Positions 724-13,201 of a stretch of 64,000 bases of DNA are shown here, piece by piece. Position numbers and translations under genes: made by a program. The DNA lies in sequence record MZ502379.1. One strand, written 5' to 3'. The stretch is from Escherichia phage vB_EcoM_Shinka. Below the pieces are notes generated by a model that was not told the DNA's origin, searched no databases, and saw only the letters and a program-made list of their open reading frames with translations. Positions within the stretch are counted from its first letter, which is position 1; each line of letters starts with the position of its first letter.

Positions 724-2406
724 TTAAACCATTACAGTAAATCGACCAACTTTCTTCATTTGAAGATGCTGACCGTATGCTTGTGGGTCATGGTCTCTAT
801 GCGAAATAACAAAAACATTAGTATTTTTTAAACTATCTAAAATAGTTGAAATAGCTTTTACACCTTCAACGTCGGTCGCTGAATCAAAAACTTCATCAAG
901 AATTAGTGTGTTTATTTTAACACCTGAAACTTTTTCAGCAATATCACGCCAAGTAAATAAAAGAGCAATATCAATTCGTGCTTTTTCACCTTGACTGAAT
1001 GAAGCATAACTAAAATCTTCACGACCACGGGATTTAATTGTCTCATTAAATTCTTCATCTAATGTAAACACATAATCCGCTTCCATTATTTTAAGATAAT
1101 AGTTAATCTGCTTATTAAATAATGGAATGTACTTTTTAATAATAGCACCTTTAATACCAGAATCTTTGAGCATATCAGTCAAAATTCCTCGGTGGTATTT
1201 TTCCATTACTAAATTAGTTTTTGTCTTAACAATTTTATCAAGTTCTTCTTGAAGCAGTGCTATTTCATCAGCATGGTCAATAAACTCAGAAGATGCTTTT
1301 TCTATAGCCGCTTTAACTTTTTTAGCTTTATCTACCGTCGTGATTAGAGATTGCTTTTTATTGCGAATATCATTTGCCAACGACTGCTGGGTTTTAATAT
1401 TATCTCGGTATTCATCAACAAGAACTTTTAAATTATCACGATGTGTTGAAAGCTGTTCAAACGAATGCGTGCATTCAGAAACTTTATCTTTAATTTTAGA
1501 AACAACTTTATCACCGGAACTCAATTGTGACAAGCAGGTTGGACATAATCCACCTTCGTGATACATATTAATGACTTTATTATACGAGTCAATTTTTGAT
1601 TTAATTAAAACTGCTTCTTGACCGATTTTATTAAATGCATCAGTCGGGTCTTCGTCTAAAACAATATTAACTAATCTTTCATTAGCTTCTTCTATTTCCG
1701 ATTTTAGCGTTCTAGCTTCTTTTGCCAAATCATCATACATATTTTGCAGACGAGTAAGATTGTCACCCGTTAATTTTTTCTGGCGTTCAACGTTATCATT
1801 ATATATTTTAATTTGTTGGATAATACTATCTTTTTTAACATCAAGCACTTGGTTTTGTGAATTTAATTCACGTATTAGTGCTTTATTAAGCTTATCCATT
1901 TCAGCTAATGTTCCTACCTCAAGCAGGTCTTCCACAAGCTTTCTTCGTGCAGGGGTCGACAAACCCATGAAAGGGGTATACCCTGCTGTACCAAGGACAA
2001 CAATCTGCTTGAAACTGGCATATGACATTCCGATAAGCTGTTCAAATTCTGCTTGGAAATCTTTACTGCTGGCAGATTCATTAAGACGTGTACCGTTAAC
2101 GGTGATTTCGAAAACGTTTGGTTTTTGTCCTCTTTTGATATAGTACTTTTTCTCATCATATTCCATCCACAGTTCAACTAAAAGTTCTTTCTTATTTGTG
2201 CTGTTTATTAATTGACCTTTCTTTACATCACGAAATGGCTTGCCAAAAAGCCCAAATGTGATGGCTTCTAACATAGTAGACTTACCACCGCCATTTCGTC
2301 CAGTAATAAGAGTTTTTTGAACCTTATCTAGTTGAATGTCAATAGGATTTCCACCTACTGACATTATATTTTGATACCTAACTCGGTTTAGTTTAAAATT
2401 CTTCAC
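724..2406 (-). CDS. 46: Recombination endonuclease subunit gp46 (SbcC/Rad50-like ATPase, 560 aa)
   Basis: 560-aa ORF with N-terminal Walker A (GRNGGGKST), long central coiled coil, CPTC zinc hook and C-terminal ABC signature/Walker B (ILDEVFD). Confidence 0.9.
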   Translation of the reverse strand: MKNFKLNRVRYQNIMSVGGNPIDIQLDKVQKTLITGRNGGGKSTMLEAITFGLFGKPFRDVKKGQLINSTNKKELLVELWMEYDEKKYYIKRGQKPNVFEITVNGTRLNESASSKDFQAEFEQLIGMSYASFKQIVVLGTAGYTPFMGLSTPARRKLVEDLLEVGTLAEMDKLNKALIRELNSQNQVLDVKKDSIIQQIKIYNDNVERQKKLTGDNLTRLQNMYDDLAKEARTLKSEIEEANERLVNIVLDEDPTDAFNKIGQEAVLIKSKIDSYNKVINMYHEGGLCPTCLSQLSSGDKVVSKIKDKVSECTHSFEQLSTHRDNLKVLVDEYRDNIKTQQSLANDIRNKKQSLITTVDKAKKVKAAIEKASSEFIDHADEIALLQEELDKIVKTKTNLVMEKYHRGILTDMLKDSGIKGAIIKKYIPLFNKQINYYLKIMEADYVFTLDEEFNETIKSRGREDFSYASFSQGEKARIDIALLFTWRDIAEKVSGVKINTLILDEVFDSATDVEGVKAISTILDSLKNTNVFVISHRDHDPQAYGQHLQMKKVGRFTVMV

Positions 2407-2666
2407 AAAAGATTCCTTTTAATGTATCTTTTAGACCATTCTATCATATCATCATAATCTAAAAAGTATTCATCAAATTCAGCCATGCAAACAACGCCTT
2501 GTGCTGCTTTTGATGTGATATAAATTATTCCAACATATCTAGAATCTTCTTCGGTGTAATCAATATTTGCTATGAATTCATCATTAATGTCAAATGTCGA
2601 AAACTTCACAGTATGCATCCTTAATACAAGATACAGCCATATCTTGTAATGATTTAGGTGTGTCAT
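2403..2666 (-). CDS. Hypothetical small protein between genes 47 and 46; start uncertain (internal Met at 2618 possible)
   Basis: 87-aa ORF whose stop overlaps the gene 46 start; overlaps the neighbouring ORF 2590-2853 unless the start is internal. Confidence 0.4.
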   Translation of the reverse strand: MTHLNHYKIWLYLVLRMHTVKFSTFDINDEFIANIDYTEEDSRYVGIIYITSKAAQGVVCMAEFDEYFLDYDDMIEWSKRYIKRNLL

Positions 2667-2853
2667 TATCTAAAATGTTGAAGTTAAAAGATACAGCCCA
2701 ATCTGTACAGACCGTAACCTTTTTAATACAATTATCTTCAACCTCTAACGGTTCAAACCAATATTCAATAATTTCTTTATGACCAATATCATCTTTTACT
2801 TCGCATTCAAAATGCTTACTCATCATAACATTTTTAAATTCATCAAAAGTCAT
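2590..2853 (-). CDS. Hypothetical small protein between genes 47 and 46
   Basis: 87-aa ORF, start overlaps the gene 47 stop (coupled arrangement). Confidence 0.45.
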   Translation of the reverse strand: MTFDEFKNVMMSKHFECEVKDDIGHKEIIEYWFEPLEVEDNCIKKVTVCTDWAVSFNFNILDNDTPKSLQDMAVSCIKDAYCEVFDI

Positions 2854-3869
2854 TGTGTTGCCTCTACATATAGCTGGTTTGCATATTGAATAAGTGCTTC
2901 GCGATCAGAATCAGTGATGTCTGGAATTGCATTAATGTATTCTTCCATCAACGTCTGAAGAGATTGAACTTCAACTTCTTCACTTTCATCTGACTCGACA
3001 GAGTTATCAATTTTTGACACAACTCGTAATGAATGCACAACTTTTTCTAGTTCAGATTCGAACTTCGTCAGATTTTTGTCTACTTCAGTTACTATAACAC
3101 GTACTGATAGATTTGTAAAATCTTTATAGTCAATTTTTCCTTTAAATGGATAATGAATTCTACGATGCCAGGTAGTATTGTTTGGAATAAATTCCATTCG
3201 TTCTGTTTCTGTATCAAACATCCAGAACCCGCGAGGGTCATTCTCGTCACCTGCAGTTAGTGTCCATGGTGTCCCAATATATCTGACGTTAGCAGCCTCA
3301 GAGATAGTATGGAAGTGACCAGACCACACCTCTTTATAAGTCTTAAGGAAATCAGGTTCAAGACCATGAGATTTCATTCCTTTATAAAAATAAAATCCAT
3401 TCAGTTCCCAGTGACCAACGCAAAAAGAAGCAGATGAAGTTTTGATGTGTTCAAGAATTTCACCAGTATTTTCTTCACACATCCAAGGAATTAAATCAAT
3501 TAAACATCCGTCAAAATCTACCGTAGTAGGCTTATCATATACTTTAACATTAGGATATTTAGCCAAAAGCTCAGTAGAGGCATTTGGAGTTAAAGTATTT
3601 TTAAAGTGCATATCATGATTTCCTACAACAGTATGTAGGGTAATACCAGCATCATCAAGCATTTGAACTATTTCACGAGCGAACTCCATAGTTTTATGCG
3701 TGATTGCTTTTCGCACATCAAAAATATCGCCGTATTGAATCCAGGTAGTAATTCCATTTTTCTTAGAATATTCTATTGCTTGTTTAATTCCATCCAACTG
3801 AATGGATTGAACCCACTCATCATCGGCTTTAACGCCTAAATGCCAATCACCTAAATTTAAAATTTTCAT
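2850..3869 (-). CDS. 47: Recombination endonuclease subunit gp47 (SbcD/Mre11-like phosphoesterase, 339 aa)
   Basis: 339-aa ORF with calcineurin-like phosphoesterase motifs (DWHLG, GDIFD, GNHD, GHWE/GHFH). Confidence 0.9.
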   Translation of the reverse strand: MKILNLGDWHLGVKADDEWVQSIQLDGIKQAIEYSKKNGITTWIQYGDIFDVRKAITHKTMEFAREIVQMLDDAGITLHTVVGNHDMHFKNTLTPNASTELLAKYPNVKVYDKPTTVDFDGCLIDLIPWMCEENTGEILEHIKTSSASFCVGHWELNGFYFYKGMKSHGLEPDFLKTYKEVWSGHFHTISEAANVRYIGTPWTLTAGDENDPRGFWMFDTETERMEFIPNNTTWHRRIHYPFKGKIDYKDFTNLSVRVIVTEVDKNLTKFESELEKVVHSLRVVSKIDNSVESDESEEVEVQSLQTLMEEYINAIPDITDSDREALIQYANQLYVEATQ

Positions 3870-9592: not shown

Positions 9593-10063
9593 TTAATCAT
9601 GTGTCCACACCCCATCGGTATTTGACCAAAGTCGCTGATTATCTGATCCTCGCCACAGCTTTTTAGTCGGAAGATTTTTCTCATACTTCCCATCAATAAT
9701 AACATCAACATATTTAAGCATTTCTAGTTGTTTAATATCTTCAAACTTATATCCTGTCCACAACCAAATGCTTTTATTGGGATAAAGATTTTTAATAGTT
9801 TGAACCACAGAGTGAATCACGTCTCTGTTATCAGGATAAAGAGGGTCACCTCCGGTTATAGTTAATCCTTCTATATAATCATTATTCAAACATTCAATTA
9901 ATTGTTCTAGTGTTTCACCAGTGAATGGAACACCATTTCTAGCATTCCATGTTGATTTATTATAACACCCTTCACATTTATGCAAACAACCTGTAACGAA
10001 AAGAACGGTCCTGCAGCCAGGACCATTAACAAAATCGCAAGGATAAAATCTATCATAATTCAT
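9593..10063 (-). CDS. nrdG: Anaerobic ribonucleotide reductase activating protein (radical SAM, 156 aa)
   Basis: CLHKCEGC radical-SAM cysteine motif; start overlaps the nrdD stop. Confidence 0.9.
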   Translation of the reverse strand: MNYDRFYPCDFVNGPGCRTVLFVTGCLHKCEGCYNKSTWNARNGVPFTGETLEQLIECLNNDYIEGLTITGGDPLYPDNRDVIHSVVQTIKNLYPNKSIWLWTGYKFEDIKQLEMLKYVDVIIDGKYEKNLPTKKLWRGSDNQRLWSNTDGVWTHD

Positions 10064-11877
10064 TGGTGCTTAACCCTATGCATGATTTCTTTATTTTTGC
10101 CGAGATTAAATCCGCGTTCGTTCGGATTTCCCAAATAACCACATGTTCTTCTTATTGTGTTCATCTTTTTAGGATCAGTTTCTCCACAAATAGAACAAAC
10201 AAATCCGTTTTCAGTAGGAGTCATTTCATGGGTACTTCCACATGTAAAACATTTATCTACTGGCATATTAACACCAAAATAATCTAAATGTTGTGCAGCA
10301 TAATCCCAGACAGCCTCAAGACCTTTTAAGTTATTTTTCATATCAGGAAGTTCAACATAAGAAATGTGACCACCTGTCGCAATGAAATGATATGGCGCTT
10401 CACGAGAAATCTTTTCAAACGGAGTAACATTTTCTTCTACTGAAACGTGGAAACTGTTAGTGTACCAGCCTTTATCAGTAACATCCTTTACACTTCCATA
10501 TTTTTCTGTATCAAGTTTACAGAAGCGATAGCACAGGTTTTCAGCAGGAGTAGAATACAAACTAAAAGCAAAACCAGTTCTTTCAGTCCACTGTTTAAGA
10601 TGAGCATTCATTTTAGTTAAAATTTCTTGCCCAATATCACGACCGACAAGAATATTCAATTCGTGAATACCAATGTATCCTAAAGACACTGAACTTCTAC
10701 CGTTTTTAAATAACTCAATTATGTCGTCATCAGGTTTAAGACGAACCCCGAATGCACCTTCTTGGTAAAGAATAGGAGCAACAGTTGCTTTAACTCCTTT
10801 TAAGGAACTAATTCTACACATCAAAGCTTCAAAACATAAATCCATTCGTTCATTAAATAATTCGATAAATTTCTGTTCATTGAACTGTGTTCCAATATAA
10901 GAATCTAACGCGATGCGAGGAAGATTCAATGTTACAACACCAAGATTATTACGTCCATCAAGAATTTCATTGCCAGTCGAATCTTTCCATACGCTCAAGA
11001 AACTACGGCAACCCATTGGAGAAACAGGAACAGATGAACCAGTGATAGCTTTATTGTTCTTAGCTGAAATAATATCAGGATACATCCTTTTGCTTGCACA
11101 CTCTAGAGCAAGCTGCTTAATATCATAGTTCGGATCGTCTTTATAAAGATTAACACCTTCTTCAACGAACATAACAAGCTTAGGGAAAATAGGAGTTATC
11201 CCATCACGACCGAGACCTTTAATACGATTTTTCAGAATTGCTTTCTGAATCATTCGTTCAGTCCAGTCAGTTCCCGTACCAAATGTAATTGTTACAAAAG
11301 GAGTCTGTCCGTTTGAACTAAAGAGAGTGTTTACTTCATATTCATAAGCTTGGAATGCATCGTATACATCTTTTTCTGTTTTAGATTGAGCATAATTCAA
11401 CGCATCAGCGATTTGCCATTTTTCTGCATCCTCAATATGTTTTGCATAGGTGCGTTTAACATAAGGAGAAAGTACTTTATCTACATTCGCAAAAGTCGTT
11501 CCGCCATATTGATGGGAAGCAACTTGCGCAGTAATTTGTGCCATAATTGCAGTAGCAACACCGATTGATTTAGGAGTTTCAATCTGTGCATTACCAAGCT
11601 TAAATCCGTTCTCAAGCATTCCTTTTAAATCTACTAAACAACAATTAGTAAAAGGCAATGATATACTGTAATCTAAATCATGAAAATGAATTAATCCAAC
11701 ATTATGGGCATTTACAATATGACTTGGAAGAATACGACAAGCGATATGTTTAGAAACAATACCGGCCATTAAATCTCTTTTTGTTGGAAAGACGCGAGAA
11801 TCTTTGTTGGCGTTTTCTGTATTTAATTCTTTATCTTTATTTGAAATAAAATTTAAAACATCTTTTTCTAAAGACAT
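10060..11877 (-). CDS. nrdD: Anaerobic ribonucleoside-triphosphate reductase (605 aa), uninterrupted
   Basis: 605-aa continuous ORF with C-terminal glycyl-radical region (RTCGYLG) and zinc-ribbon cysteines (CFTCG...CSICG); no intron-sized interruption. Confidence 0.9.
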   Translation of the reverse strand: MSLEKDVLNFISNKDKELNTENANKDSRVFPTKRDLMAGIVSKHIACRILPSHIVNAHNVGLIHFHDLDYSISLPFTNCCLVDLKGMLENGFKLGNAQIETPKSIGVATAIMAQITAQVASHQYGGTTFANVDKVLSPYVKRTYAKHIEDAEKWQIADALNYAQSKTEKDVYDAFQAYEYEVNTLFSSNGQTPFVTITFGTGTDWTERMIQKAILKNRIKGLGRDGITPIFPKLVMFVEEGVNLYKDDPNYDIKQLALECASKRMYPDIISAKNNKAITGSSVPVSPMGCRSFLSVWKDSTGNEILDGRNNLGVVTLNLPRIALDSYIGTQFNEQKFIELFNERMDLCFEALMCRISSLKGVKATVAPILYQEGAFGVRLKPDDDIIELFKNGRSSVSLGYIGIHELNILVGRDIGQEILTKMNAHLKQWTERTGFAFSLYSTPAENLCYRFCKLDTEKYGSVKDVTDKGWYTNSFHVSVEENVTPFEKISREAPYHFIATGGHISYVELPDMKNNLKGLEAVWDYAAQHLDYFGVNMPVDKCFTCGSTHEMTPTENGFVCSICGETDPKKMNTIRRTCGYLGNPNERGFNLGKNKEIMHRVKHQ

Positions 11878-12689
11878 AATTCTAATTTATCCTTTTGAAA
11901 TTCTTCGTCTAAATATGGGTTCCAACCCATTTTAAACCTTTTGATGAAATTATCAATTCTAAATTTCGGTAAGTTTAAATCCGCAAAAATAGATGATTTA
12001 CTTTTAAAATCTGGACTTAAATAATCATATAAAATTTCTGCGTATTTTAACCATAATATACAAGTACCAGATTTAATTGCTCTCGGAGTTTTCCAAGGTT
12101 TTACACCATACATCGGATTTCCACTTCCTTTATGCCTGATAGAAGATGAAATTCCAATTTTAATTTTAGCTTCCTTTGTATGCGAAAATCCACGATGTGG
12201 ATTTTCTTTCCAGTATTTTTTAGAAGCTTCTGATATTTTCTTTCTGGCTAAATTAGTATGATGCTTTCCATAAAATCCATGATTTTTGCCTTTATTACGA
12301 TTTCTTTTAATCATGGTTATTGATTGCTTTTCTCTAGTTTCTTTAGAAGGAGAAATACCATATGTTGTAAATTGGCCATCAGCATATGCTAAATTAAAAT
12401 ACTCTTTATTCCATACATCTTTTTCTATATTCTTTTGAAATTCAGCTTCAATGCTAGTTATTTGTTCATCTCCGACTAATTGAAAATATAATATTTCAAC
12501 TTTCGGCGTTTCTTTCAATAAGGCTTTTTGAAATTCGGAAGATGACGAAGACGAATAATAAAATTTACCATTTTTATCAATAATATTCGTTCCATCAAAA
12601 GTGCAATTGGTTTTACTTCCAATGTAATAATATGGTGGGATTTTAGCATTAATTCTATTAATAAATGATAGTTTATATACTACATTCAT
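11868..12689 (-). CDS. Free-standing GIY-YIG homing endonuclease-like protein (273 aa)
   Basis: N-terminal VVYKLSF and YYYIGSKTN motifs (GIY-YIG) plus basic NUMOD3-like repeats (KGKNHGFYGKHHT, HKGSGNPMYG); overlaps gene 49 stop and nrdD start. Confidence 0.7.
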   Translation of the reverse strand: MNVVYKLSFINRINAKIPPYYYIGSKTNCTFDGTNIIDKNGKFYYSSSSSSEFQKALLKETPKVEILYFQLVGDEQITSIEAEFQKNIEKDVWNKEYFNLAYADGQFTTYGISPSKETREKQSITMIKRNRNKGKNHGFYGKHHTNLARKKISEASKKYWKENPHRGFSHTKEAKIKIGISSSIRHKGSGNPMYGVKPWKTPRAIKSGTCILWLKYAEILYDYLSPDFKSKSSIFADLNLPKFRIDNFIKRFKMGWNPYLDEEFQKDKLELCL

Positions 12690-13159
12690 TTTAAACTCTT
12701 TCTAAGCTGCTTCTTAAATGAAGCTATTAATTGTGTTTTGGTGTCAGATTCATTATATTCAAATCCTCTTTGAAGCATCTCGGCCATCATTTCCTCTTTT
12801 CCTAAACGAGAAAATTCCTTTGATTTATCTCCAACAAAGTTAGGGTGAATATTATTTTGGGTGTAATCGGATTTTAAATAAGTAAGTAAATTTTCTAACC
12901 ATTCAAGATAATCAACACCTTGTCCCTTTAAGCCAGAACGATTAAATTTATGCTTCATTTGACCTTCTGCGGCATTGCATAGATTACAAAGCAATCCACG
13001 TACCTTTCCTGCTTTTGGTCCATTTAATTCATGGTCATGATCAAGATGATTAGCTTGAACATCAGGATTTAGTTCTCGTTGGCAAATTAAGCATTTACCG
13101 TTTTGTGCATTATAAAATTTTTGTTTTTCTTCTTTGTATAATTTGCCAGTCAATAACAT
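12686..13159 (-). CDS. 49: Endonuclease VII, Holliday junction resolvase (157 aa)
   Basis: Sequence MLLTGKLYKEEKQKFYNAQNGKCLICQRELNPDVQANHLDHDHELNGPKAGKVRGLLCNLCN matches recalled T4 gp49 with its zinc-binding cysteines and HNH-like core. Confidence 0.9.
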   Translation of the reverse strand: MLLTGKLYKEEKQKFYNAQNGKCLICQRELNPDVQANHLDHDHELNGPKAGKVRGLLCNLCNAAEGQMKHKFNRSGLKGQGVDYLEWLENLLTYLKSDYTQNNIHPNFVGDKSKEFSRLGKEEMMAEMLQRGFEYNESDTKTQLIASFKKQLRKSLK

Positions 13160-13201
13160 AATAAAACCCTTACCTTAAATAGATAAGGGTATTTATTATT
13201 T

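Follow-up and report, generated by a model that had tools for sequence, protein, structure and literature searches.

A probable Seg-type homing endonuclease gene at the gene 49/nrdD junction of Escherichia phage vB_EcoM_Shinka and the divergent nrdD start that accompanies it

Introduction

The catalogue of homing endonucleases in phage T4 comprises 15 members and holds no element at the junction between gene 49, which encodes endonuclease VII, and nrdD, which encodes the large subunit of the anaerobic ribonucleotide reductase (PMC2988022). The free-standing enzymes of T4 cut in a flanking conserved gene, and their genes are often promoter-less and often overlap the upstream open reading frame (ORF) (PMC2988022). 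Here we describe a gene at the 49/nrdD junction of Escherichia phage vB_EcoM_Shinka (MZ502379.1), studied in a stretch of 64,000 nucleotides (nt), hereafter the window. Its product is probably a homing endonuclease of the T4 Seg type, and the free-standing gene would be carried on a mobile cassette with a linked, re-coded start of nrdD.

Gene 32.1 of T4, which lies between genes 59 and 32, encodes SegG, an enzyme recorded as an active GIY-YIG endonuclease with gene 32 as its target (PMC2988022, Table 1). The catalytic domain of SegG is homologous to that of the Shinka protein, with 39% identity over ~126 amino acids (aa). Both genes are free-standing, lack a promoter of their own, lie directly upstream of the associated gene and are sporadic in occurrence. 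The two differ in locus (59/32 vs 49/nrdD) and in their C-terminal halves, which are unrelated; the Shinka protein has NUMOD3 motifs and is 63 aa longer, and the first 225 nt of its flanking gene form a 65%-identical allele, in contrast to the few polymorphisms found beside SegG.

I-TevII shares with the Shinka gene the host gene nrdD, membership of the same broad, atypical GIY-YIG group with a common YIG...Y-x-SSS pattern, and poor detection by Pfam. It is borne by an intron at nrdD nt ~537, whereas the Shinka gene stands free at nt 1. The mobC and SegH genes at the nrdG/nrdD junction of T4 and its relatives are likewise free-standing endonuclease genes flanking nrdD (PMC2988022, Table 1), at the opposite end of nrdD from the Shinka gene. 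SegF, which distinguishes T4 from T2 at gene 56, spreads with a neighboring allele and excludes the markers of the other phage (PMC2988022). Its intronless homing was shown experimentally, while the Shinka case is known from comparison alone. The mobE gene of Aeh1, which splits nrdA (PMC2988022), and the islands of homing endonuclease genes and allele-exchange patterns of ICP1-like phages (PMC10448857) are further instances in which an endonuclease gene lies in or next to a ribonucleotide reductase gene and the coding sequence has been remodelled. They differ from Shinka, in which nrdD is unsplit and its start has been replaced by a cassette-borne copy; in one distant relative, described below, the old start survives as a remnant.

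The locus and its linked nrdD start

The Shinka gene is an intact ORF of 273 aa with an ATG start. It has the same orientation as its neighbors and lies between conserved genes, outside any intron or intein. The gene 49 stop codon (TGA) and the start codon of the ORF share an ATGA, and nrdD begins 10 nt before the stop codon of the ORF, giving an overlap of 10 nt. An earlier inspection of the letters alone (the sequence-only reading) had described a 273-codon ORF between gene 49 and nrdD that overlaps both, and an nrdD in one continuous frame of 605 codons; both descriptions hold, and the minus strand is now added. The features of the locus are as follows.

11868..12689, minus strand: homing-endonuclease ORF, 273 aa, intact (ORF call; matches to PHROG 7504, 314 and 655; purifying selection)
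11653..11877, minus strand: endonuclease-linked divergent nrdD 5′ segment, nt 1-225, codons 1-75, presumed cleavage-resistant allele
10060..11877, minus strand: nrdD, anaerobic ribonucleotide reductase large subunit, 605 aa, intronless, with a chimeric 5′ end (PF13597, E 1e-170)
12686..13159, minus strand: gene 49, endonuclease VII (Pfam PF02945 and PF09124)
12686..12799, minus strand: 3′-terminal ~114 nt of gene 49, presumed left homology arm (gene 49 alignment, 23 loci)

In T4 and T2 the gene is absent, and gene 49 and nrdD overlap directly by ATGA, a clean empty site. Since the two genes overlap directly there, the endonuclease gene is a net insertion of 812 bp. Its ATG stands at the exact position of the nrdD ATG in T2 and T4, and the ribosome-binding region that serves nrdD in non-carriers is supplied by the 3′ end of gene 49. 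Gene 49 of the window is 98% identical to that of T4 and T2 right up to the stop codon, and its last ~114 nt are near-identical in Tequatrovirus and Mosigvirus, with the endonuclease gene present or absent.

On the other side of the insertion the picture is different. Over nt 1-240, nrdD of the window matches T2 at 155 of 240 positions (~65% in the tract nt 4-225), against 97-98% downstream. At the protein level, NrdD and its T2 counterpart share 62.7% identity over residues 1-75 and 99.1% over residues 76-500. When 11 carriers and 12 non-carriers from three genera were aligned, the fixed differences between the two groups began at nrdD nt 4 and ended, in all 11 carriers alike, at nt 225. Past nt 226 the polymorphisms are common to carriers and non-carriers, and the only sequence fixed between them is the insertion itself plus nrdD nt 4-225. 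The linked 5′ allele occurs at ≥90% identity in 49 records, comprising 48 full carriers and phage OLB35, which is discussed below; the remaining records are ≤80% identical to it, bar one at 80-90%. The T2/T4-type 5′ allele is itself nearly invariant across three genera.

The mobile unit, as delimited by this alignment, is a cassette of 1,034 bp (window 11653..12686) that appears to consist of the endonuclease gene and the re-coded first 225 nt of nrdD. It replaces 222 nt of the resident nrdD allele, with the net gain of 812 bp given above. The search for a donor of the divergent nrdD start yielded no lineage, unlinked DNA matching it at 67-75% identity at best.

Distribution and selection

By megablast the gene was found in 49 phage records and, among the matches listed, always between endonuclease VII and nrdD. 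Some 686 records match the 49-nrdD region at ≥90% identity, and 48-49 of these (~7%) carry the gene; once RefSeq duplicates are removed, the carriers are ~42 distinct phages. They include fPS-2, fPS-90, TadeuszReichstein and PD112 in Tequatrovirus and ST0, JK42 and AV111 in Mosigvirus. IMG/VR contributed only two carrier contigs. The sequence-only reading had proposed a variable insertion, to be checked by comparing the 49-nrdD junction across T-even genomes, and the absence of the gene from T4 and T2 and its presence in ~7% of close relatives agree with that proposal.

Between Tequatrovirus and Mosigvirus carriers the endonuclease gene is 97-99% identical and the linked tract 95-99.6%, while gene 49 is only 81-82% identical. 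Because the gene is so much more similar between genera than gene 49, recent horizontal spread is indicated. Among 11 intact copies the ratio of nonsynonymous to synonymous polymorphism (pN/pS) is 0.16, so that the gene is under purifying selection.

The rest of nrdD has a history of its own. In a comparison of eight loci (L016, L017, L020, L027 and L052-L055) with window nrdD 10060..11652, nrdD from nt 226 onward was 93-96% identical between the window and Mosigvirus or Gaprivervirus and 95-98% identical within Tequatrovirus, compared with ~80% for gene 49. The jump in similarity falls inside gene 49, ~114 nt before the stop in Mosigvirus (window ~12799/12800) and ~70 nt before it in Gaprivervirus, and occurs with or without the endonuclease gene. 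This pattern is suggestive of an earlier cross-genus sweep that took in the nrdD region.

Decay and loss

OLB35, a Mosigvirus (MH992122.1), has no endonuclease gene and has kept the linked nrdD allele. Its nrdD begins with the first 22 nt of the endonuclease gene (MNVVYKL, 7 codons), fused in frame to the linked allele (locus L061, 2180..2230), and the total length of nrdD is still 1818 nt. In the endonuclease family MNVVY forms the conserved GIY strand, so these residues do not derive from nrdD. OLB35 is, as its sequence reads, an in-frame deletion derivative that retains the linked allele; the flagging of its record as UNVERIFIED weighs against this interpretation. In Pu-Krd-SF4 (locus L062, 879..1616) a 1-nt insertion at endonuclease nt 735 truncates the protein to 245 aa, a copy in decay.

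A Logan contig (SRR27536177, here L060) from a more distant T4-like phage carries a 55-codon remnant of an nrdD start between endonuclease VII and an endonuclease homologue. This homologue is 58% identical and split by a frameshift, and it is followed by a full nrdD that it overlaps by 16 nt (2188..3180). The nrdD start of L060 is 61% identical to that of the window, and that of T2 62.7%, so L060 is no closer. Since a homologue stands beside nrdD in this phage, the association of the endonuclease lineage with the nrdD start appears to be old, and the remnant together with a full nrdD indicates that at least once insertion duplicated the gene start instead of replacing it. Intact carriers in two genera, a frameshift, a deletion and a remnant together represent the whole cycle of invasion, decay and loss.

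The protein and its family

With T4 SegG the protein shares 39% identity over residues 1-126 (tblastn E 1e-16; pairwise BLASTP E 2e-26 over 128 aa), and beyond the N-terminal domain pairwise BLASTP finds the protein unrelated to SegG. In PHROGs it falls in three 'homing endonuclease' families, the best match being phrog_7504 (E 2.9e-34) and the others 314 and 655. The middle of the protein matches the Pfam NUMOD3 family PF07460 at 29.6 bits (gathering cutoff 20.4; E 6.5e-7) in two stretches, the better at residues 130-153, and a motif G-x-N/H-x-x-YGK-x-HT aligns with many NUMOD3 proteins. The C-terminal region is similar only to an nrdD-linked homologue, P0002 (55% over residues 47-268). An AlphaFold model is confident for the N-terminal domain, with a predicted local distance difference test (pLDDT) score of ~90, a predicted template modelling score of 0.78 for the domain alone and a beta-beta-alpha-beta-alpha-alpha layout; in the C-terminal region confidence is low (pLDDT 38-57). 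Three parts are distinguished.

12375..12689, minus strand: N-terminal catalytic domain, ~residues 1-105, SegG-like, divergent GIY-YIG-type
12135..12353, minus strand: NUMOD3 repeat region, ~residues 113-185, presumed minor-groove DNA-binding linker (PF07460)
11871..12134, minus strand: C-terminal region, ~residues 186-273, presumed target-specific DNA-binding domain, with no family assignment

The canonical GIY-YIG residues of I-TevI are R27 after the YIG, the catalytic E75 and the downstream N90. In an alignment with metagenomic relatives, some of them PF01541-positive, the GIY, YIG, Glu and Asn columns are occupied in the Shinka protein by Y5, by Y22 and G24, by E81 and by N99, respectively. 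Y5, the last residue of VVY, and the YIG at residues 22-24 are invariant in the subfamily, and the VVY and YIG lie on predicted strands 2-8 and 21-26. E81 is invariant in 25 of 25 aligned sequences and N99 is present in ≥90%, and both are invariant in the subfamily. The segment with E81 and N99 is the only part that hhalign aligned to canonical GIY-YIG domains.

Several observations weigh against a GIY-YIG nuclease. The protein has no match to Pfam GIY-YIG PF01541 at E≤1, and hhalign against canonical GIY-YIG N-terminal domains gave a probability of only 8%. Against PDB sequences phmmer returned 0 matches and a profile search 5, none of them a nuclease and the best a chance beta-propeller; Foldseek searches of the PDB with the full model and with the domain alone were not significant. 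The GIY and YIG elements are separated by 16 residues with a short inserted helix, compared with ~10, a spacing longer than in I-TevI, and no Arg aligns with the canonical post-YIG Arg in the alignment with PF01541-positive proteins. As to structure, 1ln0 had by far the best Foldseek template modelling scores, 0.44-0.53, though the matches were not significant. As to the Arg, R12 and K26 are invariant in the subfamily, and the gap at the post-YIG position is common to T4 SegG as well.

With respect to Pfam, a control is instructive. T4 SegG has no match at E≤10, and I-TevII reaches only E 1.3 against PF01541, which implies that Pfam is blind to the SegG-like subfamily; the control weakens only the Pfam objection. 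When 12 N-terminal domains of the subfamily were compared with Pfam, PF19835 was matched in 3 (best E 0.013) and PF01541 in 1 (E 1.1). SegG (locus L063, 701..1333) and I-TevII (L001, 2984..3760) are experimentally active enzymes that are near-invisible to PF01541, so that any annotation pipeline built on Pfam will pass over the subfamily.

On sequence grounds the protein belongs firmly to the SegG subfamily. Membership of the GIY-YIG superfamily is likely, given homology to SegG, and hence the status of SegG itself, and the predicted fold. We conclude that the protein combines a SegG-like, divergent GIY-YIG-type catalytic domain with NUMOD3 repeats and a private C-terminal domain. The sequence-only reading had recognised a free-standing Seg-type gene, the motifs VVYKLSF and YYYIGSKTN, and NUMOD3-like repeats in the middle. 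SegG homology bears out the first, the motifs are present at residues 3-9 and 20-28, and PF07460 scores above its cutoff. Its assignment of the N-terminus to GIY-YIG fared less evenly, gaining from SegG homology, the predicted fold and the motif columns and losing from the missing PF01541 match. A search of the window with profiles A1-A3 found no further SegG-like or NUMOD3/GIY-YIG ORFs.

Relation to the nrdD intron and other endonucleases

As the sequence-only reading stated, nrdD of T4 is split by a group I intron with I-TevII. Alignment of the exons of T4, fPS-2, Lv5cm and G8 puts the insertion after nt ~536-538, corresponding to window ~11341, and shows nrdD of the window to be intronless. 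The end of the linked tract lies ~311 nt upstream of the intron insertion site.

11339..11342, minus strand: unoccupied site at which the group I intron of T4 nrdD inserts, nt ~536-538 of the gene (exon alignment)

Between nt 521 and 600, nrdD of the window and that of intronless T2 are alike except at nt 549, 573 and 576. The empty intron site and its immediate flank, 11329..11357 (nrdD nt 521-549), match T2 but for nt 549, and because of this match Shinka may be a recipient for intron homing driven by I-TevII.

The endonuclease gene and the nrdD intron with I-TevII coexist in fPS-2, Lv5cm and G8 and, to judge from locus length, probably also in F26, Manna and OES_C-3. With a third endonuclease gene between nrdD and nrdG, fPS-2 and Lv5cm have three such genes in or around nrdD. 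Endonuclease genes at this nrdD-nrdG (mobC/segH) position were seen in some carriers (L003, 4838..5677; L050, 4762..5496; L051, 4646..5476). The window has neither this nrdD intron nor an endonuclease gene at the nrdD/nrdG junction, where nrdG (9593..10063) overlaps the nrdD stop. Thus nrdD is flanked or invaded by mobile endonucleases at three places: the 5′ end, the intron at nt 537 and the 3′ end. Kinship of the Shinka protein was rejected both to I-TevII (no significant similarity, E 1.0) and to the endonuclease at the nrdD/nrdG junction of TadeuszReichstein (E 0.36). The cassette gene and the T4-type intron are independent elements.

Proposed mechanism and alternative explanations

In a mixed infection the enzyme would cut the nrdD 5′ region of a cassette-free phage. 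Resection would then run into the conserved flanks, namely the 3′-terminal ~114 nt of gene 49 and, across the cut, nrdD from nt 226 onward, and repair from the carrier genome would copy the endonuclease gene together with the linked nrdD start. Because recombination can resolve only in homologous flanks, the whole cassette would be copied. The linked allele, ~65% identical to the target allele, would render the carrier immune to its own enzyme. Nine diagnostic sites in ST0 show Tequatrovirus-type markers over nrdD nt 279-678 followed by Mosigvirus-type markers, which is compatible with co-conversion; that ST0 is the sole case makes co-conversion beyond the tract thin and at most suggestive, a point that weighs against the scheme. 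It also counts against it that the divergent tract could be a historical passenger, not the immunity determinant.

The comparisons demonstrate the anatomy of the locus, the linkage, the sporadic occurrence in more than one genus, purifying selection and the scars of decay and loss, whereas nuclease activity, target position and translational coupling are here inferred. Since a carrier needs immunity and the sole fixed differences lie there, the recognition site should be in the junction or in nrdD nt 4-225. We infer that the target is in the nrdD 5′ end of non-carriers, a position favored over the junction because the free-standing enzymes of T4 cleave well away from the genes that encode them (PMC2988022), because the tract is universally kept, even after loss of the gene, and because the L060 remnant extends to codon 55. 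In its fullest form, to which we would give somewhat less than an even chance, the mobile unit is a 'gene-start replacement' cassette, made up of the endonuclease gene and a foreign, cleavage-resistant set of the first 75 nrdD codons.

The enzyme might instead recognise the 49/nrdD junction itself, which the insertion would disrupt as at an intron homing site; in that case the 225-nt nrdD start would have come along from the donor lineage as a passenger, unneeded for immunity. Like the tract, the junction invariably separates carriers from non-carriers, and the tract differs at synonymous and non-synonymous sites alike, with 62.7% protein identity, as a foreign homologue would and not as minimal escape changes would. 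Such a target is nevertheless unlikely, given that characterised free-standing T4 enzymes cut away from their own gene (PMC2988022), that the tract is kept with an identical boundary in every carrier of two genera, and that OLB35 keeps it despite having lost the gene; in L060, moreover, the survival of the old nrdD start to codon 55 implies that that insertion was not at the junction.

It is still less probable that the protein has ceased to be a nuclease and persists as a relic or a domesticated DNA-binding protein, kept for read-through translation of nrdD and spread by ordinary recombination. Its lack of an evident canonical Arg and of a significant GIY-YIG profile match, the start of nrdD within the 3′ end of the gene, the unusual conservation of the whole nrdD region across genera, and the name 'NUMOD3 domain-containing DNA-binding protein', the only one given by one source, would all suit such a role. 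Against these stand the catalytic positions, where Tyr, Tyr, Glu and Asn do not vary within a subfamily to which the active SegG belongs, and a pN/pS that covers the whole protein. OLB35, furthermore, shows that nrdD can function in the absence of the gene, at any rate well enough for the phage to be isolated, and the identity of the gene across genera, 97-99% vs 81% for gene 49, points to recent directional spread. Least credible of all is the idea, built on the suggestion of the sequence-only reading of a different homing solution at the same locus with a possible target in intron-containing relatives, that the gene and the nrdD intron exclude each other and that the enzyme perhaps cuts intron-containing alleles or the intron insertion site. 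Shinka nrdD indeed has no intron, T4 lacks this gene, and both elements exploit nrdD. This idea is contradicted by the presence of both in fPS-2, Lv5cm and G8. Neither replacement of the intron nor a target in intron-containing alleles is supported, as the protein has no significant similarity to I-TevII and no fixed carrier/non-carrier difference is found around nt 537, the nearest ending at nt 225, ~311 nt short of the intron site.

Expression

The endonuclease gene would have no promoter of its own and would take over the ATGA-coupled start after gene 49. Translation of nrdD, whose start precedes the stop codon of the endonuclease gene by 10 nt, would then probably begin by re-initiation. 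The T4 late-promoter motif TATAAATA was not found in or near the endonuclease gene, and sigma-70-like sites in the region are not above chance (15 vs 10.8 ± 3.6). One such pair (11956..11929) is located ~50 nt upstream of the nrdD ATG.

11929..11956, minus strand: possible embedded promoter, on weak evidence; a sigma-70-like pair of hexamers (TTGATA-16-TAAAAT) within the 3′-terminal part of the endonuclease gene

Predicted hairpins that cover the start codons of the endonuclease gene and of nrdD fall short of significance (z ~-1.8). Upstream, the interval from pin to gene 49 holds a hairpin that resembles a terminator and has a T-run; it is located at 13166..13190 (minus strand) and coincides with an annotated 'terminator' feature in fPS-2 and fPS-90.

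Names and literature

The exact protein is recorded at NCBI as 'homing endonuclease' of phages Shinka, fPS-2 and fPS-90. Labels are inconsistent across sources and include 'homing endonuclease', 'SegG homing endonuclease', 'hypothetical protein' and 'putative 24.6 kDa protein', as well as 'HNH endonuclease' in a metagenome-assembled genome and 'NUMOD3 domain-containing DNA-binding protein' in an entry filed under E. coli. A consistent gene name would help annotation. Our literature search found no paper that names or characterises the gene; the paper on fPS-2 and fPS-90 mentions homing endonucleases in a figure legend only.

Significance

The Shinka gene is an uncharacterised member of a well-known class, and its tidy cassette and scars are consistent with established homing-endonuclease biology. 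It leaves the understanding of homing endonucleases unchanged and adds an uncharacterised Seg-type endonuclease at the 49/nrdD junction. The predicted target is narrow and directly testable, being confined to 225 nt of T2 or T4 nrdD.

If the proposal of a gene-start replacement cassette is true, every homing event would give the recipient a chimeric NrdD. The endonuclease gene would receive the ribosome-binding site of nrdD, and nrdD would be translated only if ribosomes re-initiate at the stop codon of the endonuclease gene. Loss of the gene would be tolerated only as a precise in-frame fusion, as in OLB35, and insertion into a distant phage would leave the old gene start behind as a remnant, as in L060. 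A selfish gene would in this manner compactly secure both immunity and retention, and the process may be a general route to mosaic N-termini in the core genes of phages.

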